Of a stretch of 64,000 nt of DNA, positions 5,677 through 53,674 are shown piece after piece. The translations under genes and the position numbers were made by a program. The notes beneath the pieces were generated by a model. The model was not told the origin of the DNA and searched no databases. It worked only from the letters and a program-made list of their open reading frames with translations. Source of the stretch: Actinomycetota bacterium. Its GTDB lineage: Bacteria > Actinomycetota > UBA4738 > HRBIN12. The stretch lies in the NCBI GenBank assembly GCA_039933515.1, contig JBDTNY010000022.1, positions 222 through 64,221 on the forward strand. Direction: 5' to 3'. Numbering within the stretch: the stretch's first letter is position 1; the number at the start of each line of letters is the position of its first letter.

Positions 5677-7719
5677 TCAGGTCCGGCGTCGGATCACCCT
5701 CCTCGCCCAGAGCCCCGCCAGCAGCAGGGCGGCTGCCGCGGTGACGATCAGCGCGATCCGGTTCACCGCGGTGACGCGCACCACGAGTTGCTGTTGATGG
5801 ATCGGGAGGTTGTTGGGCGCCCTGGTGATGACCTCGATCGTTCCCGGGCCCGCCCCGGTGGCGAGCACCCGGAGGTTCACGATCTGGTTCGAGCCGGTGA
5901 GTTCGATCGTCTGGCGGTCTCCGTCGGGGAAGGTGAACCGCGAGGACCGGAACTGGAGTTGCACGGTGATCGGGGTGCCGCCTGGGTCGCCCATCCTGAT
6001 CGGGATCGTGCCCTCGCGCGACGTCAGGGTGAACACCTGGCTCGTGTCGGGCGCCGCATGCTCGAACAGGGCGCCCGTGACGGCGTCGACCGATGCGATC
6101 CAACGGGAGCCCGCCGACGGATCCGCCAAGAACTCACCGGACTCCGCCATGAGCAAGGCACGACGCAGCCGGTCGGGTACCGGGGACGCGTCGAGGAGCA
6201 TCGCCTCGAATCCGTCGATTCGGCGTCGAGCATCCCGGATCGCGTCGGCATAGGTACGCGGGAACACCACCGCGGGTGCCGGGGCGAGCGCCGTGGCGTC
6301 GCCAACCGGATACACCTGTCGCACGAGTTGGCGGGCGGTCACGCCTCGCAGGAACGGAGCCTCGGCGAGGCGGCGCGTGATCGGACCCCAGATGCCCGAC
6401 GGGAGGCTCGCGGGGAGGGCGAGCGAGACCCCCCGCACCGTGGGAGGCACGGGTACCGGCGATTCCCGCCAGATCGTGGCGAGCTCGCCCAGGACGACCT
6501 GGGCCGCGAGGATCGGGTCCTGATCGATCGCCGGATCGGCAAGCAGCCCCGTCAGGTCCGGGTCGGGGAGCACGATCGAGACCTCGCCCCCCCCGGTCAC
6601 CGGAACTCCCACCGTGGACAGCGGCGCGTATGCGTTCTCCTGTTCCGGCCGCTCCACGGTGTCGGCATCGCCGAGGACCGTCAGGATTCCACGCGAGGAT
6701 AGGAGGGCGATCGTGGCGCCGTCCAGGGCGCCTTGGGGGGGTCTGATCACCTCGCGGACGGGCGGATGATCCAGCGTGAGGGCGACCGTGCGGCGGCCGA
6801 GCGCGAGCTGTGTGGTCAGGTCGGGCGCGAGGGTCGTCGCGAGCAGGGAAGGCAGGAGCGGCGCCGAGAACGGCATCGCCGACGGCTCCACCTGGGGATC
6901 GCTCGCGAGGCGTGCAAGCCGACGGAGCATGCGGTCGGCATCCTGGGCCGGGGGATCGGCGGGGTTGACCTGGCTGCCGTCGGTGCGCTCGTACCCCTCG
7001 CGCATGCGGGCCAGCTGGTCCAACGTGGATGGCTGCAGCACGAGATCGAACGCCGCCTGGCGTTCGGCGTCGTCGGCGATCCGGACGAGCGCGTCGAGCT
7101 GCGACGAGAGGGCGCCCCCATCGGCGATGGAGGCTTCGAATCCCCGGTCGGCGAGCCGGCCGTCCGGATCGAAGGTCGCCCCCGCGGAGAACTCGGCCCA
7201 CCACGAGAGTCGCAGCGGCTGCTCGGGCGGGCGCACGAGATGGATCGCGGCTGAGTTGATCGCGGCCACTGGAACCCCACCGCTCCGCAGGTCGATCCGG
7301 AACGGGTAGACCAGGGAGTCGACGGCGCTCACCCCGCCGATCGAAGACAGGTCGATGTCCTCGGAGAAGCTGCGCGGTTCGCCGGGAGTCAGCGAGTCTT
7401 TGCGGGCGAAGGTCTGAGTGAAGACGGGAGAGTCGCCAGGCCCATCGACCAGCGAGGATCCATACAAGGTCCGGGAACGGATCGGCTGGCCGATCGTGAC
7501 GCCGAATGAGAGATCGTCGATGGAAGCCGCACCGTCGTTGCTCGCCTCGACGGTCACGGAGAGCACGGGGTCCTTCAGCGTGGTCCAGGCCGTCTGCGCG
7601 ACGAGCCGAAGGGTGACGTCCGTCTGATCCTGCGCTCGGGCGACCGGCACGCGGCTCAGGCACGGCAACGCCGCGAGGCACAGCGAGAAGAGCGCGCGGG
7701 ACACGCGTTGGGTGGTCAT
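5677..7719 (-). CDS. Large secreted/anchored protein, DUF6049-like (Rv3909-like by position)
   Basis: ATG 7719 gives a signal peptide (MTTQRVSRALFSLCLAALPCLSRVPVARAQ). There is a C-terminal TM anchor (IALIVTAAAALLLAGLWARRVIRRRT). It sits between the NUDIX/TauE genes and murJ, as in the conserved actinobacterial block. Confidence 0.75.
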   Translation of the reverse strand: MTTQRVSRALFSLCLAALPCLSRVPVARAQDQTDVTLRLVAQTAWTTLKDPVLSVTVEASNDGAASIDDLSFGVTIGQPIRSRTLYGSSLVDGPGDSPVFTQTFARKDSLTPGEPRSFSEDIDLSSIGGVSAVDSLVYPFRIDLRSGGVPVAAINSAAIHLVRPPEQPLRLSWWAEFSAGATFDPDGRLADRGFEASIADGGALSSQLDALVRIADDAERQAAFDLVLQPSTLDQLARMREGYERTDGSQVNPADPPAQDADRMLRRLARLASDPQVEPSAMPFSAPLLPSLLATTLAPDLTTQLALGRRTVALTLDHPPVREVIRPPQGALDGATIALLSSRGILTVLGDADTVERPEQENAYAPLSTVGVPVTGGGEVSIVLPDPDLTGLLADPAIDQDPILAAQVVLGELATIWRESPVPVPPTVRGVSLALPASLPSGIWGPITRRLAEAPFLRGVTARQLVRQVYPVGDATALAPAPAVVFPRTYADAIRDARRRIDGFEAMLLDASPVPDRLRRALLMAESGEFLADPSAGSRWIASVDAVTGALFEHAAPDTSQVFTLTSREGTIPIRMGDPGGTPITVQLQFRSSRFTFPDGDRQTIELTGSNQIVNLRVLATGAGPGTIEVITRAPNNLPIHQQQLVVRVTAVNRIALIVTAAAALLLAGLWARRVIRRRT

Positions 7720-7745
7720 GCCCGGCCCATCGTAGCGGTCGGCCC

Positions 7746-8510
7746 TCAGCCCCGGACGAGGGCGAGCGCTTCCTTCAGGCCGTACGCGACGGCAACGACC
7801 AACAGGAACGAGCCGACCGCGAGGCGCAGCAGCCGTTCCTGGGTTCCTAGCGCGAGCCGCGCGCCGACCAAGGCCCCGGGCACGGCGCCCAGGGTGATCC
7901 CCAGGAAGATCCACCAGTCGATATGGCCGAGCCAGCCGTGGACGATCGTGCCGGGGATCACGAGAACGACGATCGCGAGCAGCGAGGTCCCGAGTGATCG
8001 CTTGAGCGGCATGCCGAGCCAGCCGGCGAGCAACGGCACCATGATCAATCCGCCGCCGATCCCGAGGAGGCCGCTGATGAACCCGGCCGCGATTCCGATG
8101 CCGACGTACGCGCCGGTCGTGGCCTCGCGCGCCGACGTCGCGGCCCCGGCTCGCCGGGTTCGAAGGATCCCGACCGCCTGATAGGCCAGCAGCACGGCCG
8201 TCGAGACCAAGAGCAGATGGGTGTCGATGAACCTCGTGAGGGCCGCCCCGACGACGGCCGCAGCGATCCCGGGCACCGCCATCCACAGCGCCGCCTGCTC
8301 GTCGATCTCCCCGGCGTTGCGATACGTGAGGGCGCCAGCGATCGCGGTGGGCAAGATCGCGGGCAAGGGGGTGGCCAGTGCGACGATCGGAGCGGCGCCG
8401 AGCAGCACCTGGATGCCCGGCGTCATCACGATGCCGCCGCCGACCCCGAACAGGCCCGAGAGGGCCCCCGATACGAGCCCGATCAGCGCTGCGACCAGTA
8501 CGTCGGTCAT
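7746..8510 (-). CDS. Sulfite exporter TauE/SafE family membrane protein
   Basis: 254 aa with about 8 TM segments. It has the duplicated GxGGG motif (FGVGGGIVMTP and LLGIGGGLIMVP) typical of TauE/SafE. Its ATG overlaps the NUDIX stop (ATGA). Confidence 0.85.
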   Translation of the reverse strand: MTDVLVAALIGLVSGALSGLFGVGGGIVMTPGIQVLLGAAPIVALATPLPAILPTAIAGALTYRNAGEIDEQAALWMAVPGIAAAVVGAALTRFIDTHLLLVSTAVLLAYQAVGILRTRRAGAATSAREATTGAYVGIGIAAGFISGLLGIGGGLIMVPLLAGWLGMPLKRSLGTSLLAIVVLVIPGTIVHGWLGHIDWWIFLGITLGAVPGALVGARLALGTQERLLRLAVGSFLLVVAVAYGLKEALALVRG

Positions 8511-13960: not shown

Positions 13961-16354
13961 ATGCCGCCGAACACCCTCGCTCCAGAGGTCGAAGCCGACC
14001 GTGGCCTGTCCTCGGGCGAAGTGGCCGCCCGCGTTGCCGACGGCCGCACGAACGACGTGCCTTCCGCACCCACCCGAACGGTCGCCCAGATCGTGCGGGC
14101 CAACGTGTTCACGCGATTCAACGCGATCCTCGGCGCGATGCTCGCGGTCATCGTCGTGGTCGGACCGGCGCAAGACGCGCTCTTCGGGTTCGTGCTGTTC
14201 GCGAACGCGCTGATCGGGATCGTCCAAGAGCTCCGCGCGAAAGGAACCCTCGATCGTCTGACGCTGCTGACGGCTCCCCGGGCGCAGGTAGTCCGAGACG
14301 GCGAGGTACGCGAGGTCGCGGTGGGCGACGTCGTCCAGGACGATGTGCTGGAGGCACCCGCCGGCGCGCAGATCGTCGTGGACGGGGAGGTGCTGACCAC
14401 CGAGGGGCTCGAGATCGACGAGTCGCTCCTGACCGGCGAGGCCGAACCGGTCGTCAAGCGAGCCGGCGACGAGGTCCGCTCCGGATCGTTCGCGTCCGCG
14501 GGGATCGGTCGCTACCGTGCCGTGACTGTCGGGCGCGAGGCGTATGCCGCCCGGATCGCCGAGGACGCGCGCAGGTTCACGGTCACGCGATCCGAGCTGC
14601 GGTCGGGCATCGACACGATCCTCACCTATGTCACGTTCGCGATCGTGCCGACGGCAACGCTGCTGTTCTTCAGCCAGCTGCGAACACACGATGCCTGGCG
14701 TCGGGCGGTGTCCGGTGCGGTGGCTGGAACCGTGGCGATGGTGCCTGAGGGACTCGTGCTCTTGACGTCGCTCGCGTTCGCCCTGGCCGCGATGCGGCTC
14801 GCACGGCAACGGGTCTTGGTGCAGGAGCTGCAGGCGGTCGAAGGGCTCGCCCGCGTGGATGTGCTCTGCGTGGACAAGACCGGCACCCTGACCGAAGGCA
14901 AGCTCTCGGTCGACCGGCTCGATCCGGTCGGAAGCGGAACCCTCGAGGTGGCCGAGCGCGCGATCGCCGCCCTTGCCGCGCACGATGCGTCGCCGAACGC
15001 CACGATGCAGGCGATCGGGAAGCGCTACCCCGATCAGCCCGAGGAGTGGCGTGCGGTCGCGTCGGTGCAGTTCTCGTCGGGGCGCAAGTGGAGCGGGATC
15101 GAGTTCGATGGAAAGGGCGCCTGGCTGCTCGGCGCGCCCGACGTGCTGCTCGCCGGGGGCACCCGCGACGACGCTGTGCTCGCGGACGTCGACGCCGAGG
15201 CCGATCAGGGACACCGCGTCGTCCTGCTCGCCCACGCCAACGCGCTCGACGCCGAGCGGCTCCCGGGGGCGCTGTCGCCGGTCGCACTCGTCGTGCTCGG
15301 CGATGCCCCGCGGCCCGATGCCGCCGACACGCTTCGCTACTTCGCTGAGCAGGGCGTGACCGTGAAGGTGATCTCCGGCGACGATCCGCGCACGGTGAGC
15401 GCGATCGCCTCGATGCTCGGTCTCGCCGGCGCCGACGAGCCGATCGACGCTCGCGACCTCCCCGGAGACGACGGCAAGCTCGCCGAGGTGATGGAAGCCC
15501 GCTCGGTGTTCGGCCGCGTCACGCCCCAGCAGAAGCGCGCCATGGTGAAGGCGCTGCAGGCTCGCGGGCACACCGTCGCGATGACGGGCGACGGCGTGAA
15601 CGACGCCCTGGCGCTGAAGGACGCCGACATCGGCATCGCGATGGGCTCGGGGTCCGACGCCACCCGCGCGGTGGCCCAGCTCGTGCTGCTGGACTCGAAC
15701 TTCGATGCGCTGCCCTCCGTCGTGGCCGAGGGCCGGAGGGTGTTGGGCAACATCGAGCGCACGTCGGGTCTCTACCTGACGAAGACCGTCTACGCGATGT
15801 TGATCTCGCTCGCGACCGGCGTGGTGGGCTTCGTGTTCCCGTTTCTGCCGCGTCATCTGACGCTGATCGGCGCCCTGACGATCGGGATCCCGTCGTTCTT
15901 CCTGGCGCTCGCCCCGAACACCGACCTGTTCCGCCCCGGATTCGTGCCGCGCATCCTGCGATTCGCGATCCCTGCCGGTGCACTTGCGGCGACCGCGAGC
16001 TTCCTCTCGTACTCGCTCGCTCGCGTGGAGCCCGGCGTGTCGCTCGAAGGGGCGCAGACCACGGCCGTGATGGTGTTGATCTGGATCGGGTTGCTGGTGC
16101 TCTCGATCCTCGCTGCGCCGCTCACGCGTGCGCGGCTCGCGCTGATCTGGACGATGGCCGGATTGTTCCTGCTCGTGCTGAATCTACAGGTGACGAGGAC
16201 ATTCTTCGCGCTGGACCCACCGTCGCTGATCGTGTGGCTCGCGGCCTTCGGCATCGCGGCGATTACCTGGTCGTTCGCGCGACTCTTCGTGCCCGGCGAA
16301 GAGCCGGTGGGACCCCGAGCACAGGGGCGCGCCGGAGGGTCCGCGAACCGCTAG
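13961..16354 (+). CDS. Cation-translocating P-type ATPase (type II, possibly CtpE-like Ca/Mg type)
   Basis: 797 aa. Motifs: TGEAEP, phosphorylation site CVDKTGTLT, MVPEGL in TM4, hinge MTGDGVNDALALKDADIGIAMG. Confidence 0.92.
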   Translation: MPPNTLAPEVEADRGLSSGEVAARVADGRTNDVPSAPTRTVAQIVRANVFTRFNAILGAMLAVIVVVGPAQDALFGFVLFANALIGIVQELRAKGTLDRLTLLTAPRAQVVRDGEVREVAVGDVVQDDVLEAPAGAQIVVDGEVLTTEGLEIDESLLTGEAEPVVKRAGDEVRSGSFASAGIGRYRAVTVGREAYAARIAEDARRFTVTRSELRSGIDTILTYVTFAIVPTATLLFFSQLRTHDAWRRAVSGAVAGTVAMVPEGLVLLTSLAFALAAMRLARQRVLVQELQAVEGLARVDVLCVDKTGTLTEGKLSVDRLDPVGSGTLEVAERAIAALAAHDASPNATMQAIGKRYPDQPEEWRAVASVQFSSGRKWSGIEFDGKGAWLLGAPDVLLAGGTRDDAVLADVDAEADQGHRVVLLAHANALDAERLPGALSPVALVVLGDAPRPDAADTLRYFAEQGVTVKVISGDDPRTVSAIASMLGLAGADEPIDARDLPGDDGKLAEVMEARSVFGRVTPQQKRAMVKALQARGHTVAMTGDGVNDALALKDADIGIAMGSGSDATRAVAQLVLLDSNFDALPSVVAEGRRVLGNIERTSGLYLTKTVYAMLISLATGVVGFVFPFLPRHLTLIGALTIGIPSFFLALAPNTDLFRPGFVPRILRFAIPAGALAATASFLSYSLARVEPGVSLEGAQTTAVMVLIWIGLLVLSILAAPLTRARLALIWTMAGLFLLVLNLQVTRTFFALDPPSLIVWLAAFGIAAITWSFARLFVPGEEPVGPRAQGRAGGSANR

Positions 16355-37300: not shown

Positions 37301-38218
37301 TCACCGCGCGACCGGCACGCGCACGGGCGCATCCGCGAGGGCGGGGGGATCGTCGGCATCGGCGGGCTCCTCTCTCGTCGTCGGCGGCAGGGGCAGCTCG
37401 TTCATATCATCGCCGACGTCGAGTCGCATCCGGCGGGCCGCCCGGTCGAGCGCACCCAGAAGGGGCCGGCCGAGCGCGATGACGAGGACCGCGTTGCCGA
37501 CCGCGCGGAAGGTGTCCCACGCGAGAGAGGTCGCCGCGTAGAAGGTCGCGTAGTGGCGCAGGTTGCTCGCCGCGGTTGCATCGGCGCTCCAGCTGATCGA
37601 CGATCCACCCGTCAGGAAGGGCCACGACCACAGGTTCATCAGTGCGCCGAAGAGGTAGCCCGCCACGACGCCGTAGACGGCCAGCACCCCGATCCGAAGG
37701 CGCCATGAACCGGTGCGGGGCACGAGGCCCGCCCCCAGGCCCACCCAGCCGACCGCGACCATCTGGAAGGGTAGCCACGGCCCGAGTCCGCCGATGAACA
37801 ACCCGCTCGCGAACGTCCCCACGGCGCCCAGGAGGAATCCGAACGTCGGGCCGAACGCGTTGCCCGCGACCAGCACGACGATGAACATCGCGCTGAACCC
37901 CGCCACGAACCCCGGAAGACGCAGGGCGACCATCGCGGCCCCAAGCACGCCGAGTAGGGCGATCGTCTTGGGGCCCATGCCCCCGCGACCCAGCTCGAGG
38001 AAGAGCAAGGCACCCAGCCCGCCGAGCAGCACGATCAGCACGGCGGGCCCGTCGACGTGGTGGTTCTCGTTCCCGCGGGTGAGCGCGGGCAGCGCGAACG
38101 GCCAGAGGAACGCGAGCAGACCGACCAGGTTGAGGACGATCAGCCCGGCGACGCGCACGCGGGAGCCACCGGTCAAGGTGCGAACGCTCAGCGACCGCGC
38201 CGCGACCGCCGCGTTCAT
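37301..38218 (-). CDS. ECF transporter substrate-capture (S) component, long form with an acidic/proline C-tail
   Basis: Polytopic hydrophobic protein whose ATG 38218 overlaps the stop of the ECF ATPase gene (ATGA). It is the last gene of the T-A-S set. I infer the family mainly from context. Confidence 0.65.
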   Translation of the reverse strand: MNAAVAARSLSVRTLTGGSRVRVAGLIVLNLVGLLAFLWPFALPALTRGNENHHVDGPAVLIVLLGGLGALLFLELGRGGMGPKTIALLGVLGAAMVALRLPGFVAGFSAMFIVVLVAGNAFGPTFGFLLGAVGTFASGLFIGGLGPWLPFQMVAVGWVGLGAGLVPRTGSWRLRIGVLAVYGVVAGYLFGALMNLWSWPFLTGGSSISWSADATAASNLRHYATFYAATSLAWDTFRAVGNAVLVIALGRPLLGALDRAARRMRLDVGDDMNELPLPPTTREEPADADDPPALADAPVRVPVAR

Positions 38219-39783
38219 GCGAGCGCCTCGGCGACCTGCTCGGGGGTGAGCCATCCCGGCCCGAACGCCCGGGTCATCTGGGGTGCGAAGACGTGCGAGT
38301 CGCCGAGCACCTCGCCGGGGTCGCCGTCGTCGATGACCTCACCGCCCGCGAGCATGATGACGCGGGTGGCGACGGTGGCCGTGAGCTCGACGTCATGGGT
38401 GGCGAACAACACCGTGCCGCCTTCCGCGGCATGGGATCGCATGAACCGCGCCAGGCGATCCTTGGCATCGGGGTCGAGCCCGCGCGTGGGCTCATCGAGG
38501 AGGAGCACGGGAGCCCGCCCTGCGGCGATCGCCGCGGTGGCCACGAGGAGCCGCTGCCCGGCCGAGAGGTCCCGTGGGTGCTGCGCCGCGAGGTCCTCGA
38601 TCCCGAGCGCCGCGAGCACCGCCTCGGGTCGCACGCTGTCGATCCCCCGGGCCTTCAGGGTGACGGCGACCTCGCCCGCGACGGTCTCGGAGAACAGCAC
38701 GGCCTCGGGTTCCTGGGGACAGAGCGCCACGTCGACGCCGGGCCGTGGCGCATGGCCGCCGACCCGGACGGTCCCGGAGGCGGGAGTGTGGACGCCGGCG
38801 ATCGAGCGCAGCAGCGTCGTTTTCCCGGCGCCGTTGCGCCCCATCACCGCGACGATCTCGCCTTCGCCGGCGACGAGGTCGACGTCGTGCAACGCGGTGG
38901 CGTCGCCGTGTCGCGCGGTCAGATGGCGCAGCTCGACCCGTACGTCACCAGGCGCCGGGATCACCGGGCCGCGTCGTGCGGGGAGCGCCCCCGCGAGCCG
39001 CCGCGCGTCGCGGACGGTCAGAGGCACGGGGTCCCAGCCGAGCAGCCGTCCCAGCCGCGCGACGGGCGGCCCCATCGCCAGGCGGCGGATCACCGCGGCG
39101 GGGTCGCCCGCGGTCACGCGTCCCTCGTCGAACCCGATCGCGAGGTCGACCTGGCCGGCGACGCGCTCGAGCCGGTGCTCGGCGAGGACGACGGTCATCC
39201 CCTGGTCGTGCACGAGCCGCTGCAACGCCGCGAACACGTGCTCGGCGCCCTGCGGATCCAGCTGCGAGGTGGGTTCGTCGAGCACGAGGATCCGCGGGCC
39301 GGCGGCGAGCGCGGCGGCGATCGCCACGCGTTGCCGCTCGCCACCCGAGATAGCACGGACGCTTCTGCCGCGCAGCGGCTCGATATCCAACAGATCCAGC
39401 ATCTCCTCGACGCGCCGACGCATGTGGGCGGGGACGACCCCCAGGTTCTCCATGCCGTAGGCCAGCTCGTCCTCCACGCGGTCGAGCACGAACGACGCAC
39501 CCGGATCCTGGGCCACGAAGGCGACCACGTCGGCGAGCGCGCGGGGCGCGTGGGTGAGGGTGTCACGCCCCGCGGCGAGGACGCGCCCCGTGAATGCGCC
39601 GCCCGTGAAATGTGGGACGAGGCCGTTCGCCAGGCGCAGGAAGGTCGACTTGCCCGCGCCCGTCGGCCCGACCGCGAGGGCGAACGTACCCTCTTCGATG
39701 TCGAGGGTCACGTCGCGCAACGCGGGTTGCGACCCGTCGGGATAGCGGAACGACACGGCGTCGACGCGCAGGGCGTCGGTCAT
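38215..39783 (-). CDS. ECF transporter fused double ATPase (EcfA-EcfA')
   Basis: Two ABC cassettes. Walker A motifs GPTGAGKST and GRNGAGKTT; signatures ISGGERQRV and LSAGQRLLV; Walker B motifs ILVLDEPT and VLLLDEPT. ATG 39783 overlaps the EcfT stop. Confidence 0.9.
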   Translation of the reverse strand: MTDALRVDAVSFRYPDGSQPALRDVTLDIEEGTFALAVGPTGAGKSTFLRLANGLVPHFTGGAFTGRVLAAGRDTLTHAPRALADVVAFVAQDPGASFVLDRVEDELAYGMENLGVVPAHMRRRVEEMLDLLDIEPLRGRSVRAISGGERQRVAIAAALAAGPRILVLDEPTSQLDPQGAEHVFAALQRLVHDQGMTVVLAEHRLERVAGQVDLAIGFDEGRVTAGDPAAVIRRLAMGPPVARLGRLLGWDPVPLTVRDARRLAGALPARRGPVIPAPGDVRVELRHLTARHGDATALHDVDLVAGEGEIVAVMGRNGAGKTTLLRSIAGVHTPASGTVRVGGHAPRPGVDVALCPQEPEAVLFSETVAGEVAVTLKARGIDSVRPEAVLAALGIEDLAAQHPRDLSAGQRLLVATAAIAAGRAPVLLLDEPTRGLDPDAKDRLARFMRSHAAEGGTVLFATHDVELTATVATRVIMLAGGEVIDDGDPGEVLGDSHVFAPQMTRAFGPGWLTPEQVAEALA

Positions 39784-40580
39784 GGGTCCTCCCTCGGGGA
39801 TCGGACCACGCCCGGGAGCGCAAGGATCCCGATGACGGCGAGCATCGCGGGCCGGACCTGTGGCCAGGTGAGTGGAGAGGTGGCGGGATGCAGGTCGCGC
39901 CCCTGCTGCCACGCGGCCGCCAGCGAGACCGCCGCGCTCGCGAACGCGGACGCCGAGACGGCGACTGCCGCGGGGGTCCAGCGCGACGGCCGGTAGCGGC
40001 TCCGACGCCCACGGCCGTGCCCGCGCGCGTCCATGCTTTCGGCGAGCGTGAGCGCCTCCTCCATGCCGGTCTCGAGCACGGGGACCGCGAGGGCGGGAAG
40101 GGTCCGCCACGAGGTCGGGATGCCGCGGAGTGTCTGCGCCTCTCGAACGCGCCCCACCATCGCGACGGTGCGCGGCGCGATCGAGAGCGCGAGCGCAGCG
40201 GCGAGCGCCGGCTCATGGAACCGCCGTGGTGCGAGACGCACGACACCGAACGGATCTGTCACGGCGTTGAAGGTCCCGAAGATGATCAGCAGGGTCGCCA
40301 GACGGGCGCCCTCGAGCGCGGCGAATGCCACGTTGCCGGCATCGACGGTCCCCAGGAAGACCAGCGAGGTACGCACCGCCACCGTGACGAGGCCGGCGAT
40401 CGCGAACAACCGGAACGACCGCGCGGTGGGGCCCGGGATCCGCTGGGCCGCGTAGACGAAGAACGACACTGCCACGATCAGGGCCAGGTAGAAGGGGTTC
40501 GTCGTGGTGAACGTGACCAGGCCGGCGCAGGTCGCCCACGTGATCCATGCGCCCGGGTGCAGACCGCTATCGCGATGCAA
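39780..40580 (-). CDS. ECF transporter transmembrane (T) component, EcfT/CbiQ family
   Basis: 266 aa with about 5-6 TM segments. The conserved ARG-type coupling region reads EALTLAESMDARG. A TTG start at 40580 overlaps the upstream gene by 14 nt. Confidence 0.8.
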   Translation of the reverse strand: MHRDSGLHPGAWITWATCAGLVTFTTTNPFYLALIVAVSFFVYAAQRIPGPTARSFRLFAIAGLVTVAVRTSLVFLGTVDAGNVAFAALEGARLATLLIIFGTFNAVTDPFGVVRLAPRRFHEPALAAALALSIAPRTVAMVGRVREAQTLRGIPTSWRTLPALAVPVLETGMEEALTLAESMDARGHGRGRRSRYRPSRWTPAAVAVSASAFASAAVSLAAAWQQGRDLHPATSPLTWPQVRPAMLAVIGILALPGVVRSPREDP

Positions 40581-41451
40581 GGGCGCGCCTCCGGCGCATC
40601 GTCAGCCAGCCGGCGGCGCCGAGCGCCGCTACCGCGATGAGCGCGAGCAACGCCCCCGCGGGTGGCCCGCCCGATCCCGGCGAGGCGCCGGCGGCGAGGG
40701 CGCCGACCGGGCTTGCCCGAACGATCGTCTGGGCGAGCGACGGAGTGGGCTCCGCGCTGGGCGTACGCGTCGCGTGCGCGTTCGCGCGCGCGCTGGCGGA
40801 GGCGTGCGCGGGACTGGCGGCGCCCGAGGCGTTCGCGTCAGCGCCCGGGCTCGCATCGGACCCGCCGCTCCCGGAGCCGGTGGTTCCGCCGCCTGCCGGG
40901 GCGGGATCCAGACTGGGGCTCGGACTCGGTGCAGGCGATGGCGACGGCTCGGGCTCGGGTTCGCAGACGTCGCCGAAGGCGAGCGCCGGAGGCGAGGCGT
41001 GCGTTGTCCCGGAGTCACCCGGCCCCCAGACCCAGCCCTCCATGTCGCCTTCGCCGATCGACGCCGACGCGGCGCCGGATCCGGCCCAGCTCCAGTTCCC
41101 GTCCCCGTCGCCGTGCCAATACCCCCAGTAGTCCGGGTAGTCGGCGAAGCAGTCGCCTCCGCTCGGCCCGGTGCCGTCGAGCTGACAGACGGCCTGACCC
41201 CCGAACCCGAGCCCGTACTGCAGACCGTACTGCCGCCCGGCGAGCTGGATCAGGTGCAAGCCGCTCACGCTCGAGTCGTCGAGCGCGACGCAGTAGGTCG
41301 ACGTGCGGCTCCCGTTGTCGATCACGAGCGCCGCATGTGGCGCGCCTCCGACGGCCGCACATGACACCCCCGTTCCGGCAACGGCGGGGCCGAAGGCCGG
41401 GAACGTCAGCGCCAGCCCGACGACGAGCAAGCGGAGGCGACGGGCCTTCAT
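40567..41451 (-). CDS. Secreted DUF4430-like protein (transcobalamin beta-domain-like) with a low-complexity linker and C-terminal TM anchor
   Basis: Signal peptide MKARRLRLLVVGLALTFPAFGPAVAG. The core ...HLIQLAGRQYGLQY...YWGYWHGDGDGNWSWAGSGAASASIGEGDMEGWVWG resembles the DUF4430 pattern (yW.y.vNg...G.s...l.dGD.i.w.y). It continues with a Pro/Ser/Ala linker and the TM segment ALLALIAVAALGAAGWL. Confidence 0.6.
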   Translation of the reverse strand: MKARRLRLLVVGLALTFPAFGPAVAGTGVSCAAVGGAPHAALVIDNGSRTSTYCVALDDSSVSGLHLIQLAGRQYGLQYGLGFGGQAVCQLDGTGPSGGDCFADYPDYWGYWHGDGDGNWSWAGSGAASASIGEGDMEGWVWGPGDSGTTHASPPALAFGDVCEPEPEPSPSPAPSPSPSLDPAPAGGGTTGSGSGGSDASPGADANASGAASPAHASASARANAHATRTPSAEPTPSLAQTIVRASPVGALAAGASPGSGGPPAGALLALIAVAALGAAGWLTMRRRRALASR

Positions 41452-41454
41452 CGG

Positions 41455-42456
41455 CTACGTCGCACAGGGCGGGGTCGGGGTGATCGGGCCGACCACCGGG
41501 CCGCTGAACGGCAGCGCCTGCAGGAGCAGCCCGGGGACGGCGCCGATCGTGGCTCCGATATCCGGCGTGCCGCGCGGTCGGCCATCGTACGAGTACGCCC
41601 AGGCGCCGCAGTTCGGGTACTGGAGCGCGCGGAGCGCGCTGCGTCCTCCTGCGGGCACGGGGTCGCCGGCCGCAGCGTAGGCCTGCAGCACGAGCGCGGT
41701 TGAGTTCGCGTCGGTGGCGATGAACCCGGCCGAGTAGCTCCACCCTCCGTGGGCGTCGTCGCGCACCGCGTCGAAGAAGGCGAACGGATCGGCCCCGAAC
41801 GTGCCTCGGTTCGCGGCTTCGAGCGCCTGCACGACATAGGACGTGGTGTTCGAGTCGGAGGTGAAGAAGTCGTTGCCCGAGCCGTCGTCGCACGAGACGT
41901 CGTCGGTCCCCGCCGCGTACGGCTCGTCGTACGCCCATCCGCCGTCGGGGCACTGTGCTTCGAGCAACCATCCGGTCACGGCGGTCGAGGGCGTTATACC
42001 GGCGCTCTCGAGGGCGAGCGTGGCGAGCGCATCGTCGAAGACGGCCGCGTCGCCGAACCGCCCCGCCGAGATCGTGCCGCGCAGGCCGGCCACGAGGTTC
42101 GCGCCTCCGAACGCCCGTGGGTCACGCCCGGCGGTGCTCACCGCGAGCACGATCTTTGCCTGGAGGCCGACCCCGGTGACGTTGCCGGCCTCCACCTGGC
42201 GGGCCAGGTAGCCGAGCGCGTCGCGCACGACCCCTCTGCCATGTCCGACCGCGACGGCCGCGAGCACCGCGTCGGCCGTGGATCCGATCGGCGAGAACGC
42301 CGGGATCGAGCCGTTCGGCTTCTGCTGTGACGCGATGAAGCCGAGGCCACGCGTGGCGCGTTCGGCGTCGGTCGTCGCGAAGGCCGACGTCGGGACGACG
42401 AGCAGCAGCGCCCCGATGGTGAGAACGGTGAGGACCTTGATGCGGGCCGAGCCCAT
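41455..42456 (-). CDS. Secreted prenyltransferase / squalene-cyclase-repeat-like alpha/alpha-toroid protein
   Basis: Signal peptide IKVLTVLTIGALLLVVPTSAFA. Repeated helical-hairpin motifs carry QxxxGxW-like boxes (SQQKPNGSIPAF, EAQCPDGGWAY, DDAHGGWSY, PNCGAWAY). An AGGGGGAG Shine-Dalgarno precedes ATG 42456. Confidence 0.7.
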   Translation of the reverse strand: MGSARIKVLTVLTIGALLLVVPTSAFATTDAERATRGLGFIASQQKPNGSIPAFSPIGSTADAVLAAVAVGHGRGVVRDALGYLARQVEAGNVTGVGLQAKIVLAVSTAGRDPRAFGGANLVAGLRGTISAGRFGDAAVFDDALATLALESAGITPSTAVTGWLLEAQCPDGGWAYDEPYAAGTDDVSCDDGSGNDFFTSDSNTTSYVVQALEAANRGTFGADPFAFFDAVRDDAHGGWSYSAGFIATDANSTALVLQAYAAAGDPVPAGGRSALRALQYPNCGAWAYSYDGRPRGTPDIGATIGAVPGLLLQALPFSGPVVGPITPTPPCAT

Positions 42457-42479
42457 GTGAGGCTCCCCCTTTCCGAGCG

Positions 42480-42700
42480 TCCGCGCGCCCTAACGGAACG
42501 ACCCCCCGGAACAGCGCGGGAGGTCGTCGTCGGGGCGTGTCGCCCGGCGGCGCGATCCCCTGTCCACGAGGGTCGTTCGGCCGTGCGTCGCGCAGGGCGG
42601 CCTGGCTCGTCCACTCCGATGGTGGACCTACAGTTGCGGGACAGCGCCGGAATCCGACCGGCTTCGCCTCCGCGACGCGGTGTCGCCCTGACGCTAGCAC
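42480..42700 (-). promoter_or_regulatory. Cobalamin (B12) riboswitch candidate, compact form, with a downstream GC hairpin / anti-SD element
   Basis: The minus-strand RNA reads GGAGGCGAAGCCGGUCGGAUUCCGGCGCUGUCCCGCAACUGUAG. This matches the conserved core GGGAA..CCGGUG..AAUCCGG.GCUG.CCCGCAACUGUA. A B12-box-like GAGCCAGGCCGCCCUG follows. The core is closed by CAGGGCG/CGCCCUG pairing (42684-90 with 42593-99). An 11-bp hairpin lies at 42498-42527, and a CCUCCC could mask the GGGGGAG Shine-Dalgarno. Confidence 0.65.
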
Positions 42701-45044: not shown

Positions 45045-45087
45045 CTACCCAGGATAGGCGGCTGCGTGGATCGTGGTGGGTTGTGGG

Positions 45088-45366
45088 TCAGCCGCGACGG
45101 AGCCGATCCATGTCGCGCCTGATCCGTGTCTCCGTCGGCTCATCGTGGCGGAAGGTCCGCCACGCATGGAACGCGATCCCGATCCCCCACCCCAAGATCG
45201 GGAAGATCGGCCAGAAGGACCCACCCCCGCTCATCCACCAGATCACAACGAGCGTCCCGTTCACCAGCACATAGGCGAGCAGGTTCGCGTAGAACTCCTG
45301 CGCGTGTTCGAGGCGGGTGAGCGCCAACTCCCGGAGCTCGTCATCGTCGCGCCCTCGGGCCATCAT
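45088..45366 (-). CDS. 2TM-domain small membrane protein
   Basis: 92 aa with two TM helices. FYANLLAYVLVNGTLVVIWW...WPIFPILGWGIGIAFHAW matches the 2TM family pattern. Confidence 0.75.
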   Translation of the reverse strand: MMARGRDDDELRELALTRLEHAQEFYANLLAYVLVNGTLVVIWWMSGGGSFWPIFPILGWGIGIAFHAWRTFRHDEPTETRIRRDMDRLRRG

Positions 45367-45531
45367 CGACGATCACCCCCTTGGGCCATGCTCCGGCAGC
45401 GGACCCTGGGCTCGTTCCGGCCGAAGGGCAGGCCCGCGGGGGGCCCATCGGGTAAGGGGAGGCTCTCGGCATGCCGATGGTGCGGCATGCGTCGGTTCCG
45501 GCATCCTGCGACCGAGGCCGGCTCGTCTCCG

Positions 45532-46239
45532 ATGGAGACGTTGCTGCTCGGGGCGCTCGTGTTCGTGCTGGCCGCGGCGATCGTGGGGTTCGCGCTGATG
45601 ATGACCTTGGCACCGCGGTCGGTCCCCGTGCCCGCCCCGGGCCCGATGCCGTCGGCGCAGGTGATCGAGATCGACTGCGGGACCGATGTCGCGGTCGTGA
45701 CGGGCGGGGCCGTTGACGCAGGTCCTCGCGGAGCCCCCGTACTCGTCATCGGCGACGAAGGCGCCACGCTGGTGTTCACCTCGCCCGGCAGCCCTGACTA
45801 CAGGATGCGGGTCTTCGAGCCCACCGGCCGCTACCTGCTCCCGCTCGCGCCCGGTGTGTGGGAAGTCGGGTGCGCCGTGCCAGGCTCGGGTCCCACCACG
45901 GTGTTCCTCGGCACGTTCGAGGTGCGCGACCCCGCTCAGATCTACCTCCGCTCGCTCCCCGATGGACCGCCGGAGGGAGCGTGCGCGCACGTCCTCGACG
46001 TGCCGCCGAGTTTCGCCGCCGATCAGCTCGGCGCGCTGCACGAGGGCCTCGCCGGCGTCGGCGTCCTGCCCACCGACACGATCGAACGCGCGGCGTACGC
46101 CGCGTCCCGCCTGAGGGCCGAGCCCCCGACCCCGCTCATCTTCCGGGTCGTGCGGGACGGGCGGATCGTCGCCCGTGTGGAAGTTGCCATCCACGGCGAC
46201 GCATGGACGGCCAGCGTGTTCGGCTGCCCCGAGGAGTAG
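45532..46239 (+). CDS. Membrane-anchored hypothetical protein
   Basis: ATG 45532 gives the TM segment METLLLGALVFVLAAAIVGFALMMTL, then a globular domain. GC3 is high. I recognise no family. Confidence 0.6.
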   Translation: METLLLGALVFVLAAAIVGFALMMTLAPRSVPVPAPGPMPSAQVIEIDCGTDVAVVTGGAVDAGPRGAPVLVIGDEGATLVFTSPGSPDYRMRVFEPTGRYLLPLAPGVWEVGCAVPGSGPTTVFLGTFEVRDPAQIYLRSLPDGPPEGACAHVLDVPPSFAADQLGALHEGLAGVGVLPTDTIERAAYAASRLRAEPPTPLIFRVVRDGRIVARVEVAIHGDAWTASVFGCPEE

Positions 46240-50400: not shown

Positions 50401-51675
50401 TCAATAGAGGGGGAGGAGCGTCTGGGCGGGATCGGCGTCGCACTGCCCGTGGATCCGATGGCGTTCGATATCCGCGGCGAACACCTTGAGGCCGCTCCGC
50501 ACGAATCGCACGGCGCCATCGGGAAGCCGGCACGCACCGCGCCCCTCGACGTCGTCGCTCCACCGGCGGAGCTGCGCGGCCGTGTCGCGGCCACCGCCGC
50601 GAACGAGTGAGCTGAGCCCGCCGGCGATCGACGCCAGTCCGTGCACGCACGGCCCGCACTGGTTCGCCGTCTGGCCCGCGAACCACGTCGCGACGCGCTC
50701 GGTCTCGCGGAGCCCGCACGCGCCGCGCGGCAGGAACCACAGAACCCCCGCGCCGAACGCCGTCCCGTGGGCGGCCAGGTCCGGGTCGCTGAGCCTGACG
50801 TCGAGGGCGTGTGCGACGTCGATCCAAGCCCCGAAGTAGCCCCCCACGAGGACCGCGGCGACATCGTCGTCGCGTCCAGCCGCGGCCCGCAGCACGTTCG
50901 CGACCGGCGTGCCCCCCGCGACCTCGTACACCCCGGGCTTCGCGACGGCGCCGGAGACCGTCACGAGCCGGCTGCCCGGCTCGTCGTCGGCCCCCACCTC
51001 GCGGAACCAGTCGGCGCCGAAGGCGGCGATCTGCGCGAGGTGGGCGAGGGTCTCGACGTTCTGCACCAAGGTCGGCCGCCCATCGACCCCCCGCTCGAAG
51101 GGCCGCGGGCCCATCGCCGGGATCGCGGGGTCACCGCCGATCGCCCGCACGAGCGAGCGTTCCTCGCCCGTGATGTATGCCCGGGGCACGCGAACGATCC
51201 GGATCGTGACGCCGGTGTGCTCGGGGCCACGCCGTGCGGCGAGGGCCGTCTGGATCGATCGGGCCGCGTCGTCGGTGTCGATCCCGAACTCGATCCGGTC
51301 GGCGCCCACGGCCGCCGCCGCCGCGAGCGCGCCGTCGAGCACGAGATGGGGGCGTGTGGTCAAGAGCAGCCGGTCCTTCATGCTGGCCGGCTCGCTCTCG
51401 GCGCCATTGACGACCACGATCGCGCGGCGCCTGCCCGACGCCACGGCCAGGAGCTTCTTCGCGGTCGGGAACCCGGCGCCGCCCCGTCCGAGCAGTCCGG
51501 CGCGCTCGACCTCGTCGATCAGCGGCCGGTTCGCGCCTCGGCCGGGCCGCGGTGGTGGTGGCATCAGAGCCCGATGCGCCGCGAGGTCGGCGGGGCCGCC
51601 AGAACCCGGAGCCGCCGCCAGGATGCGCGGCAGCCCGGTGGGGCCGGTGGAGGTCAGGGGTTGGACGGCGGCCAA
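50401..51675 (-). CDS. NuoF-like (complex I 51-kDa subunit family) flavoprotein with SLBB and Fe-S regions
   Basis: GLLGRGGAGFPTAKKL (FMN site), VVNGAESEPASMKDR (NADH site), and Fe-S region NQCGPCVHG...GACRLPDGA. Confidence 0.82.
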   Translation of the reverse strand: MAAVQPLTSTGPTGLPRILAAAPGSGGPADLAAHRALMPPPPRPGRGANRPLIDEVERAGLLGRGGAGFPTAKKLLAVASGRRRAIVVVNGAESEPASMKDRLLLTTRPHLVLDGALAAAAAVGADRIEFGIDTDDAARSIQTALAARRGPEHTGVTIRIVRVPRAYITGEERSLVRAIGGDPAIPAMGPRPFERGVDGRPTLVQNVETLAHLAQIAAFGADWFREVGADDEPGSRLVTVSGAVAKPGVYEVAGGTPVANVLRAAAGRDDDVAAVLVGGYFGAWIDVAHALDVRLSDPDLAAHGTAFGAGVLWFLPRGACGLRETERVATWFAGQTANQCGPCVHGLASIAGGLSSLVRGGGRDTAAQLRRWSDDVEGRGACRLPDGAVRFVRSGLKVFAADIERHRIHGQCDADPAQTLLPLY

Positions 51676-51690
51676 GAGGATGCGGCTCCT

Positions 51691-52737
51691 TCAGATCGAG
51701 CTTCCCGCGGGGGTCAGATGCATCGTGCCGTGCGTGGTGCCTGCCTGGTCAACGATCTGCATCGTCAGGTCGACGTCGACGGTCGTGCCGGCCGCGTCGG
51801 TCAGCCGGGCGACGATGCGCCCGCCTTGGAGCGACTCGATCGCGCCCACGTACTTCGTGGGCGCCACGCCGAGCGAGACCTGCCCGCGCCGAACGGAGAG
51901 CCCGTCGGGCGTGGCGGTGCCGCCGAGCAGGATCTCGATCGGCATCTCCGAGGTGTCGAGCGTGCCGACGATGTCGAGCTCCACCGATCCGTCGGCGTTC
52001 GCGCGCTGGCTCGCCTGAGCGGTGAAGGCCGAATTCGTCGGGAGCGACGTGGAGGCGGACTGCACGCGCGCGGCGGGAGGCGTGTGCGCCGGGGTACCCG
52101 CGGCGTTCGCCCAGCCGGGGGCGAGCGGGCCGGCGAGCAGCCAGACGGCCACGCCGAACGTGCCGGTGGCGGTCGCGCCGAACGCTGCGAGCCGGGGCAG
52201 GGCTTGCGGTGGTTGCACGCTGTAGGCGCGCCACCAGACGGCGCCGACCACCGACGCCAGGCAGCCGGCGTCGAGCAGCAGCATCCAGGCGGCGCTCGTG
52301 TCGCTGCCGGTGCCGAGTCCGTGCAGGAGCGCGACCGGCCAGCATGCATACGCGAGCCAATGGATCGCCTTCCAGGATCGGTACCCGAGCCGGACCCGCA
52401 CGAGGCTCGTGATGACCAGGGCCACCAGCAGGTCGAAGCCGACCGCCCCCAGACCGAGCCAGACCGGCCGGTAGGCCGAGGTGAACGGCAGCAGCGCGTC
52501 CGCCCAACGGATCGGGGCGTAGCTATCGAAGACGGCGGTCGCCACGTGCACGCCGAGGAACGCGACGGCCATCAGGGAGAGGTTCCGGTGCAGCCCTTGG
52601 GTGATGAACCTGGGCCAGCGGCTCGAGGCCCAGCCCACCGAGCCCGTGATCCCGAGGACCACCACGCCGGTCAGCAGCAGGAGCGACACCGCTCCGGTGC
52701 CACGGGTCAGGAACCAGTACGCCTGGGTCGCGATCAC
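51691..52737 (-). CDS. Ferric-reductase-like (MsrQ/YedZ-like) transmembrane protein with an unknown C-terminal domain of about 130 aa
   Basis: Six TM segments with conserved His pairs (QGLHRNLSL...FLGVHV and KAIHWLAYA...ALLHG), which suggests di-heme binding. The beta-rich C-terminal region lacks a recognisable FMN_bind motif. Confidence 0.78.
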   Translation of the reverse strand: MIATQAYWFLTRGTGAVSLLLLTGVVVLGITGSVGWASSRWPRFITQGLHRNLSLMAVAFLGVHVATAVFDSYAPIRWADALLPFTSAYRPVWLGLGAVGFDLLVALVITSLVRVRLGYRSWKAIHWLAYACWPVALLHGLGTGSDTSAAWMLLLDAGCLASVVGAVWWRAYSVQPPQALPRLAAFGATATGTFGVAVWLLAGPLAPGWANAAGTPAHTPPAARVQSASTSLPTNSAFTAQASQRANADGSVELDIVGTLDTSEMPIEILLGGTATPDGLSVRRGQVSLGVAPTKYVGAIESLQGGRIVARLTDAAGTTVDVDLTMQIVDQAGTTHGTMHLTPAGSSI

Positions 52738-52753
52738 CGGTATCGGCCCACGT

Positions 52754-53674
52754 TCACGCCGCGGCTTCCGCCGGCCAGCCGGCGGTGCGCACGATCGTGC
52801 CGTCGATCCTGACCAGCCTGGCGGGAAGGCCGAGCCGCTGCAGCCAGAGTGCGGCCGGCTCGCCGCGCACGATCGCGGCGGTGGCGGCGACGTTCGCGTC
52901 CACGCAGGTGGCGGCGGCCACGCTCACGGTGCGCCAGACCTCAGCGGCGGGAAGCCCGGTCGAAGGATCGACGACGTGGTGAAGCTGGCGCCCGCCGCGG
53001 ATCCACCTGCGCACGGTCGTACTCGAGGTCGCGAGGCCGCCGGCGTCGATCCGGATCGTCTGGCCGGGCTCCGCGGGCGAATCGTGCGCGTCGGCGAGGC
53101 CGACGTCCCAGCCGCCACGCGGCGCGTCGCCCGCCACGGCGATATCGCCGCCCAGGCTGACCAGCACACCCGACTCGGAAGCGGCTGCCGCCGCCCGGGC
53201 CGCTCGGTCGGCGGCGAACGCCTTGGCCGTGGCGCCCAGGTCGAGCCGCACCCCACGCGGGATGCGAACCTGCACTCGCTCGCGGTCGAGCTCCACCGCG
53301 CGCCACCCAGGAGCGGCTCGGAGGGAACCGATCGGAGGACCGTCGCGGTCCATCCCCGCGAAGTCGCGGTCGTAGCCGACCAGCAGCAACGCCTCGCCCA
53401 CCGTGGGATCGACGTCGCCGTCGGTGAGCGCGGCGGCTCGGAGGGCGACCTCGATCGCGTCGATCAGGAGCGGCGCCACCCGCACCCACGTGCCGGCGCT
53501 CTCATGCAGACGCGCGAGTTCGCTGTCGGGCCGGAAACGGCTGCACGCGAGATCGATCGCGTCGACCTCGCGGCGCACGGCCAGGATCGCGCTGGGGAGG
53601 CCGTCGGGATCGGCGGCGACGACGGTCGCGGTCGTGCCGAACGCTCGGAACGAACACGTGGCCGGCGGGCGCAT
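52754..53674 (-). CDS. apbE: FAD:protein FMN transferase (ApbE family)
   Basis: FRAFGTTATV...SRFRPDSELARL...DPTVG...LDLGATAKAFAADRA...SLGGDIA...GLATSST...HHVVDPSTG are ApbE hallmarks. Confidence 0.88.
   Translation of the reverse strand: MRPPATCSFRAFGTTATVVAADPDGLPSAILAVRREVDAIDLACSRFRPDSELARLHESAGTWVRVAPLLIDAIEVALRAAALTDGDVDPTVGEALLLVGYDRDFAGMDRDGPPIGSLRAAPGWRAVELDRERVQVRIPRGVRLDLGATAKAFAADRAARAAAAASESGVLVSLGGDIAVAGDAPRGGWDVGLADAHDSPAEPGQTIRIDAGGLATSSTTVRRWIRGGRQLHHVVDPSTGLPAAEVWRTVSVAAATCVDANVAATAAIVRGEPAALWLQRLGLPARLVRIDGTIVRTAGWPAEAAA

Follow-up and report, generated by a model that had tools for sequence, protein, structure and literature searches.

The window analysed here, a 64,000-nt stretch of contig JBDTNY010000022.1 (positions 222 to 64,221; assembly GCA_039933515.1) from an Actinomycetota bacterium of the lineage UBA4738/HRBIN12, contains a five-gene minus-strand operon (37301-42456; all positions are those of the window) that is preceded by a cobalamin riboswitch and encodes two exported proteins, here termed A and B, together with the T component, fused ATPase and S component for an ECF (energy-coupling factor) transporter. 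This operon probably encodes a dedicated (group I) ECF importer for cobalamin or related corrinoids, which would be repressed by vitamin B12 and equipped with A and B as a corrinoid-capture pair at the cell surface. The link to cobalamin riboswitches among related loci and the occurrence of natural fusions between A- and B-type domains argue for a corrinoid as the ligand.

Organization of the operon

Five open reading frames (ORFs) were confirmed on the minus strand at the positions given in a preliminary description of this DNA. The first encodes protein A (41455-42456; 333 aa), a relative of the SCO2321 family with a signal peptide and a predicted 12-helix alpha/alpha toroid, and the second encodes protein B (40567-41451; 294 aa), which consists of a signal peptide, a predicted beta-grasp domain, a stalk, a membrane helix and an Arg-rich tail. 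These are followed by genes for a probable EcfT (39780-40580; 266 aa, TTG start), a fused EcfA-EcfA' ATPase (38215-39783; 522 aa) and an ECF S component (37301-38218; 305 aa). The genes are tightly packed, with junctions that, read from the sequence, correspond exactly to the 3-nt gap, 14-nt overlap and two ATGA overlaps of the preliminary description. The stop codon of gene A (TAG) is separated from the ATG of gene B by CCG, the TTG start of the T gene lies inside the end of gene B with an overlap of 14 nt that includes the B stop codon, and an ATGA is common to the T and ATPase genes and again to the ATPase and S component genes. The ATGA junctions set the starts of the ATPase and S component at positions 39783 and 38218, respectively, and both products are shorter than the longest listed ORFs. 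High third-position G+C, as in real genes, is found in all five genes (window G+C, 70%). A Shine-Dalgarno region, GGAAAGGGGGAG (42463-42474, minus strand), ends 6 nt before the ATG of gene A, and GGAAAGGAG is kept at this position in related leaders.

Cobalamin riboswitch in the leader

The leader contains a cobalamin riboswitch aptamer at positions 42585-42700 (minus strand), as indicated by a partial match to the Rfam family RF00174, conservation and covariation. Scanned alone and with laxer filters, the leader matches RF00174 at 42601-42662(-) with 31.3 bits (E=4.8e-6, model positions 51-163), 0.2 bits short of the gathering score of 31.5 bits (clan CL00101), while a scan of the whole 64 kb (1-64000) at the gathering threshold returned no Rfam family, tRNA included. 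As the score of the window leader is borderline on its own, it was tested against the leaders of related loci. For this purpose, species-representative genomes were scanned with a profile of protein A, which yielded 80 loci, all from metagenome-assembled genomes of uncultured Actinomycetota and with 39-92% identity to A.

The aptamer starts with the conserved sequence GTGCTAGCGT (42691-42700) and contains a closing stem formed by GCGTCGCG (42671-42678) and CGCGACGC (42585-42592), the core CCGGCGCTGTCCCGCAACTGT (42630-42650) and the B12-box-like sequence GAGCCAGGCCGCCCTG (42593-42608), all on the minus strand. Riboswitches of this type were recognized in sequence by a conserved core (CCGG..GCUGUCCCGCAACUGUA) and a B12 box (GAGCCAGG) in the leader of a B12-related operon, and the window leader has both. 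The 21-nt core occurs once in the window, compared with 0.01 occurrences expected by chance, and exactly once in 69 of 85 loci, each time upstream of the toroid gene. Similarly, in 69 of the 80 loci the A homolog is preceded, at a distance of 133-335 nt, by the 11-nt core CCCGCAACTGT, which has a single further occurrence elsewhere in these loci.

The gathering score for RF00174 was reached in 13 of 23 related loci tested, with values of up to 96 bits. These include nine of 12 sampled loci with the core and four of the 11 loci lacking the exact core, the latter being canonical cobalamin riboswitches of 86-96 bits; four more of these 11 match RF00174 at the same position with scores under the threshold. 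Altogether, at least 77 of the 80 loci carry the riboswitch element, and 17 tested loci, including four distant ones described below, pass the cut-off. Among the remaining three, L042 gave no match at E<=0.1, L033 was checked at the gathering threshold only and L072 has only 190 nt of upstream sequence. Furthermore, an RNAalifold consensus of 37 leaders contains 25 base pairs, ten of which show compensatory changes, mostly in the closing stem and a variable hairpin. Because the element recurs in relatives, reaches the gathering score in many of them and contains covarying stems, the leader is a genuine riboswitch of the cobalamin type, whose lineage-specific form scores poorly with the Rfam model. 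The corresponding claim of the preliminary description therefore holds once relatives are compared, despite a score in the window of 31.3 against 31.5 bits.

Two leader forms are found with one operon type, a canonical form (L018, L031, L037 and L046; 86-96 bits) and a divergent form (23-37 bits), which is present in the window and most other loci and retains the core with different peripheral stems. The leader of L061 is best matched by the adenosylcobalamin (AdoCbl) family RF01482, with 67 bits.

Two hairpins follow the aptamer. A small hairpin (CCCTCGNGG..AGGGG; 42557-42572, minus strand) is located 13 nt downstream of the closing stem and is nearly invariant in the 37-leader alignment; it may be the partner in a loop-loop contact with the aptamer. 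Closer to gene A, a G+C-rich hairpin (GACGACCTCCCG-loop-CGGGGGGTCGT, then TCCGTT; 42492-42528, minus strand) with a weak U tract is present in the centroid structure of the window leader, and hairpins with different but complementary stems occupy this position in L001, L002, L004, L027, L030 and L058. A scan of the leader for canonical promoters and terminators returned none, and this hairpin fails the canonical terminator rule of the scan. As the folding energy of the region is unremarkable (free-energy z-score, -0.5), it is the conservation across loci that supports the hairpin as a putative terminator-like expression platform, through which the riboswitch could act by termination.

Protein A, an exported alpha/alpha toroid

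Protein A contains a Sec-type signal peptide (residues 1-27, ending in AFA before a T). Its AlphaFold2 model, based on an alignment of 46 homologs, has a mean predicted local distance difference test (pLDDT) score of 92.5 and consists of the signal-peptide helix and 12 further helices. A Foldseek search against the PDB returned 88 matches at E<=0.001, headed by squalene-hopene cyclase-like structures (8paj/8pak) and the beta subunits of RabGGTase and FTase (E-values of 3e-7 to 5e-5), with drimenyl diphosphate synthase and AprG as further matches. In agreement with this, a profile of the A family identified squalene-hopene cyclase 1gsz among PDB sequences (E=1.2e-10), and 40 of 46 A relatives show weak matches to SQHop_cyclase_C (best E=2.3e-6). 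A itself has no Pfam match at E<=1, the Prenyltrans and SQHop_cyclase models included, and its best sequence family is NCBIfam SCO2321_fam (NF053823, 'SCO2321 family membrane protein'), reached with 91.5 bits against a cut-off of 300. No A relatives were identified by tblastn in annotated plasmids. On the strength of the predicted structure, we are confident in describing A as an exported protein with an alpha/alpha toroid of the terpenoid cyclase/prenyltransferase type, and the squalene-cyclase-like repeats recognized in the preliminary description are borne out by the AlphaFold2 model, Foldseek and the profile search.

This resemblance raises the alternative that A is an exported terpene cyclase- or prenyltransferase-type enzyme with an envelope lipid or glycan as its substrate and with a B12 link that is regulatory only. 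The closest solved structures of A, those named above, are indeed all enzymes. However, the DxDD motif of class II cyclases was not seen by eye in A or in the invariant columns of its family, B and an ECF importer come after A in every case, and in some organisms A is fused to B-like domains. Among the readings considered here, we regard this as the least probable and prefer to see A as one half of a corrinoid-capture pair.

Protein B, a transcobalamin-beta-like domain on a stalk

Protein B has a signal peptide with a possible lipobox, GTGVS-C31 (residues 26-31; 41359-41376, minus strand), and a globular domain (about residues 37-165) that AlphaFold2 models with pLDDT values above 90 as a beta-grasp fold of the SLBB, transcobalamin-beta-like kind. 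The domain is followed by a Pro/Ser/Gly/Ala-rich stalk (about residues 166-260), which is disordered in the model, and a C-terminal membrane helix (residues 265-293) with an Arg-rich tail. The order of predicted secondary structure elements is two strands (39-45 and 50-56), a helix (64-75), a beta-hairpin (79-82/87-91) and three strands (107-114, 120-122 and 137-144).

Two kinds of structure account for all of the top 16 Foldseek matches of B, namely the DUF4430 protein 3u7z from Ruminococcus gnavus and beta domains of transcobalamin (5no0, 5np4, 2bb5 and others). Against stand-alone domain entries, target TM-scores range from 0.68 to 0.76, with a root-mean-square deviation of about 2.5-3.6 A in most matches over approximately 110 columns. 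A beta-hairpin that follows the helix is named as the distinguishing feature of the transcobalamin-like clade within the SLBB superfamily in the part of the study by Burroughs, Balaji, Iyer and Aravind (2007; PMC1796856) on which we draw. B has this post-helix hairpin, combines an N-terminal hydrophobic signal with a C-terminal helix and is encoded in a CbiO/CbiQ-type operon, as described for this clade.

None of this is apparent from sequence families. B has no Pfam match, DUF4430 (PF14478) included, and a lenient Pfam scan did not detect DUF4430 in any of 20 B-family members, even at E<=10. Close B homologs carry PF28005 ('SCO2322'), a family that the scanned copy of Pfam predates, and the best sequence family of B is NCBIfam SCO2322_fam (NF040672), with 29.1 bits against a cut-off of 85. 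A B profile searched against PDB sequences returned only low-complexity noise from the stalk, and PF01122, the family of eukaryotic cobalamin-binding proteins, has no match in the operon proteins. On the modelled structure, the B domain is of the DUF4430/transcobalamin-beta fold, which cannot be recognized from sequence. The connection with transcobalamin is purely structural and was demonstrated for B only.

The preliminary description had anticipated an exported B with a DUF4430-like fold, a disordered stalk and a C-terminal anchor, with which the model and Foldseek agree, whereas the Pfam families it expected (Prenyltrans or SQHop_cyclase-like for A, DUF4430 for B) were found in neither protein. 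Its proposal that A and B carry the two folds of a split transcobalamin is borne out for B, which superimposes on the transcobalamin beta domain, and for A as far as the alpha/alpha toroid fold goes; a particular likeness of A to the alpha domain did not show among its best 50 of 88 matches.

C31 is conserved in at least 90% of the B family and absent from the fusions described below. A GGPPxGA motif is conserved just before the membrane helix (B residues about 263-276; 40624-40665, minus strand), and some B homologs are labelled as LPXTG-anchored by JGI. It may be that B is held at both ends or that GGPPxGA serves as a sorting signal.

Conservation of the module and natural fusions

The gene order A, B, T, ATPase and S is found in 68 of the 80 related loci, and the other 12 are all broken off at contig ends. 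A B-domain profile additionally reaches distant proteins with 33-43% identity to B, one of them on a contig labelled Anaerolineae. The corresponding contigs encode a squalene-cyclase-like toroid, an SCO2322 protein and an ECF S component, T component and double ATPase, sometimes in a different order, and RF00174 is located just upstream of the toroid gene in all four complete distant loci (39.7-65.3 bits, above the gathering score). Homologous clusters are consistently tied to RF00174 and to no other riboswitch class, and the neighbourhood conservation proposed as a check in the preliminary description was borne out. B12-related genes occur near some of these operons. In L081, a cobalamin adenosyltransferase gene (PF01923; 11149-11712) directly follows the ECF genes, and in L082, which contains two tandem SCO2322-type genes (6362-7756), a gene for a CarH-like regulator with MerR and B12-binding domains (14326-14756) starts approximately 2.9 kb downstream of the operon.

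When the B domain was searched for exhaustively, 1,907 cluster representatives were retrieved at E<=0.001, among them single-chain fusions. In both P0463 (547 aa) and P0459 (529 aa), a signal peptide is followed by a toroid, then by a B-like domain and finally by a stalk with a membrane anchor. Their toroids are 34% and 29% identical to A, respectively, and match Pfam SQHop_cyclase above the cut-off, and their B-like domains share about 40% identity with B (E=2e-25 for P0463). The order is reversed in P0456, in which two B-like domains precede the toroid, and P0473 carries two B-like domains on a very long Pro/Thr-rich stalk. Gene fusion is a classical sign that separately encoded proteins act as one unit, and the existence of these single-chain proteins suggests that A and B may do so. 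A further candidate fusion, P0369, was rejected as a frameshift artefact, as it retains the signal peptide of B in mid-chain.

ECF transporter components

The S component matches PF12822 (ECF_trnsprt) with 39.6 bits (cut-off, 30.7), and a phmmer search against PDB sequences matched no solved S component, CbrT included. The fused ATPase contains two ABC_tran domains (E=1e-48) and scores 287 and 276 bits against TIGR04520 and TIGR04521, below their equivalog cut-offs of 315 and 330, and 254.7 bits against the cbiO subfamily model TIGR01166, above its cut-off of 211.8. The T gene product matches Pfam CbiQ (PF02361) with 21.6 bits, under the cut-off of 25; its orthologs in other loci are annotated as PF02361, and two coupling-helix motifs of the Ala-Arg-Gly type, AQTLRG and MDARG, were recognized by eye in the translation. 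The S, T and ATPase genes lie in one operon with overlapping junctions, and their order is kept in 68 of 68 complete loci. Pfam and NCBIfam matches agree with the fused EcfA-A' and S component named in the preliminary description, and its EcfT is probable from the sub-threshold match, the ortholog annotation and the motifs.

Such names could point to cobalt or another metal for B12 synthesis as the cargo of a CbiMNQO-like importer, with B as a metal-binding protein. Cobalamin riboswitches often control cobalt uptake, the T component and ATPase match models named CbiQ and cbiO, and the top structural match of B, 3u7z, was deposited as a 'putative metal binding protein'. The CbiQ and CbiO names are, however, generic for ECF modules, the S component belongs to PF12822 and not to CbiM or CbiN, and a 12-helix toroid paired with or fused to a transcobalamin-beta-like domain is the architecture of a large-ligand binder. 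A metal importer is therefore quite improbable, and import of a corrinoid remains the preferred interpretation of the ECF genes.

Comparison with known systems

The concept of a bacterial transcobalamin-like system is already known. Bacterial transcobalamin-like SLBB proteins were predicted in 2007 to scavenge B12 or its precursors, and the part of that study on which we draw describes toroid fusions in either order, paralogous pairs, anchors in Gram-positive bacteria and operons with CbiO and CbiQ (Burroughs et al., 2007; PMC1796856). As far as this part of the study extends, its systems share with the window a secreted or anchored beta-grasp protein with a post-helix hairpin, a fused or adjacent toroid and genes for an ECF-type ATPase and T component, and tandem SLBB paralogs are common to them and to the relatives described here (L082, P0456 and P0473). 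Unlike the systems covered there, B is a member of the SCO2322 family (PF28005), none of whose 20 scanned members was detected by the DUF4430 model, and neither the riboswitch link nor the actinobacterial family of the window is described in that part of the paper (PMC1796856). The window operon is a divergent instance of a kind whose biochemistry was predicted.

Transcobalamin, intrinsic factor and haptocorrin (2bb5, 5no0) likewise combine an alpha6/alpha6 toroid with a beta-grasp domain outside the cell. B superimposes on the eukaryotic beta-domain entries with target TM-scores of 0.68-0.73, and the toroid-first domain order of P0463 and P0459 is that of transcobalamin. In contrast to transcobalamin, A and B are two polypeptides without sequence similarity to it, and the system is membrane-tethered and coupled to an ECF transporter in place of receptor-mediated endocytosis. 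Surface capture of B12 is also known from Bacteroides, in which the B12-binding lipoproteins BtuG and BtuH are encoded with a B12 transporter behind a cobalamin riboswitch. These proteins have folds unrelated to A and B, belong to a diderm outer membrane and feed the TonB-dependent BtuB.

ECF-CbrT of Lactobacillus delbrueckii is, like the system proposed here, an ECF-type importer, and it transports both cobalamin and cobinamide (Santos et al., 2018; PMC5997447). The window operon differs from it in an S component without detectable similarity to CbrT, its own T and ATPase genes and two exported partners. The substrate range of CbrT bears on the possibility that the cargo is another B12-related molecule, such as cobinamide, an incomplete corrinoid or a non-cobalamin cobamide taken up for remodelling, to which A and B would be tuned. 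What a cobalamin riboswitch reports is B12 status, which leaves the cargo itself unspecified; the S component shows no relationship in sequence to CbrT, and the adenosyltransferase gene beside the L081 operon would fit the salvage of any corrinoid. The observations fit one corrinoid as well as another, however, and it is from proteins that bind complete cobalamin that the transcobalamin-beta-like fold is known. We consider a specialization for such a molecule unlikely, and retain the broader reading of an importer for cobalamin or related corrinoids.

The closest experimentally studied counterpart is encoded by lsa1836-1840 of Lactobacillus sakei, whose deletion impaired heme accumulation, which complementation restored (bioRxiv 10.1101/864751). 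Compared by description and not by sequence, it likewise consists of an S component, a fused ATPase, a T component, a transcobalamin-beta-like protein and a prenyltransferase-like 'alpha' protein, which were modelled there as a split transcobalamin. It differs in belonging to a Firmicute and in its assignment to heme on genetic evidence, and a riboswitch is not mentioned in the paper (10.1101/864751). By analogy, the cargo in the window's lineage could be heme or another non-corrin tetrapyrrole, heme and corrinoids both being tetrapyrroles. Yet a cobalamin riboswitch is present at nearly every locus, which would be senseless as a control of heme uptake. Moreover, the scanned neighbours of the operon include no genes for iron or heme functions, and the L. 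sakei proteins are of another sequence family, DUF4430 being undetected in the B family. Corrinoids are favoured over heme because of the near-universal link to the cobalamin riboswitch, and a heme importer is accordingly very improbable here.

Several observations weigh against a corrinoid-capture system. Corrinoid binding and transport by the A and B families are predictions drawn from genes and folds, and the sole experimentally studied system of such architecture, that of L. sakei, was reported as a heme importer (10.1101/864751). The riboswitch score of the window itself lies just under the Rfam cut-off, the Foldseek E-values of B are modest (8.7e-4 to 4e-2), and the best structural matches of A are enzymes with TM-scores of 0.4-0.6, with no cobalamin binder, and thus no transcobalamin, intrinsic factor or haptocorrin chain, among the best 50 of 88. 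At the sequence level, profiles of A and B searched against all PDB sequences matched none of these three proteins at E<=10. Furthermore, the related loci share ancestry, and their counts do not represent independent events.

The preliminary description proposed cell-surface capture of corrinoids that feeds an ECF transporter, a reading with which the folds, riboswitch and operon are consistent and in which the capture step itself is the predicted part. It named as findings that would speak against it the lack of DUF4430 or toroid folds, of structural similarity to transcobalamin domains or of an RF00174 match, and a consistent tie of homologous clusters to a different riboswitch or substrate; in substance, none of these was encountered. 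Its statement that the pair is uncharacterised is right for the SCO2321/SCO2322-type family and for B12 binding, and overlooked the 2007 prediction and the L. sakei genetics. Full-text searches identified no paper on the function of SCO2321 or SCO2322, and DUF4430 or prenyltransferase-like proteins, ECF transport and cobalamin were not found combined in the literature except in one proteomics paper that uses each term once. NCBIfam SCO2321 and SCO2322 and Pfam PF28005, the best sequence families for A and B, bear names that carry no function.

Other features of the window and related loci

The scanned genes flanking the operon, which encode MFS transporters, a PNPOx-like protein, a SnoaL-like protein, YaaA and PAC2, have no relation to B12. 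At 50401-53674 (minus strand), a Nuo51/RnfC-like flavoprotein with an SLBB domain of its own, a membrane protein of the ferric-reductase-like kind and an ApbE flavin transferase are encoded by three adjacent genes, which look like a small membrane electron-transfer module and are separate from the operon described above. A 388-aa ORF at 45073-46239 (plus strand) has coding-like composition and no Pfam match at E<=0.001. Four of the more distant loci carry a gene for bacterial RNase P RNA (RF00010, 263-295 bits) a short way downstream of the ECF operon (L061, 10509-10893; L072, 5885-6307; L077, 11510-11893; L080, 10735-11127), and no match to this RNA was found in the window.

Proposed mechanism and significance

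We suggest that the five genes are transcribed as one operon, which the cobalamin riboswitch would turn off when B12 is sufficient and permit to be transcribed when B12 is scarce. B would be anchored in the membrane by its C-terminal helix, with the beta-grasp domain on a stalk of about 100 residues that could reach into or through the cell wall. A, secreted and soluble and without an anchor of its own in the window's lineage, would pair with B, and a corrinoid could be clamped with the toroid mouth on one side and B's hairpin face on the other, as it is between the alpha and beta domains of transcobalamin. The ligand would then be handed to the S component, with uptake driven by the EcfT/EcfAA' module.

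The capture of B12, present in soil and water at trace concentrations, by bacteria that lack an outer membrane is poorly understood. To our knowledge, CbrT is the only characterised ECF route for B12, and we know of no demonstration that the bacterial transcobalamin-like proteins predicted in 2007 bind B12, the single genetic study having assigned heme. At the window locus and approximately 85 relatives, a toroid, a beta-grasp protein and an ECF module come with a cobalamin riboswitch almost without exception. This near-universal link, the assignment of the SCO2322 family to the transcobalamin-beta fold and the natural fusions are what this locus adds, and a Pfam/NCBIfam family without a function is now linked structurally to the transcobalamin beta fold. 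The concept itself will not surprise a specialist, but the ligand of bacterial transcobalamin-like proteins becomes directly testable. The names SCO2321 and SCO2322 presumably derive from locus tags of Streptomyces coelicolor, and the idea may therefore be testable in a tractable organism.

In a broader form, the SCO2321/SCO2322-type pair would be a two-chain bacterial counterpart of transcobalamin that acts as a high-affinity corrinoid clamp on a stalk spanning the wall, loads a dedicated ECF S component and provides a major route for B12, and L. sakei-type systems would primarily be corrinoid importers, a proposal for and against which we see the chances as evenly balanced. If it is true, the approximately 1,900 clusters at 50% identity would represent a major unrecognised form of B12 uptake in Actinomycetota of soils and sediments and in some other phyla.

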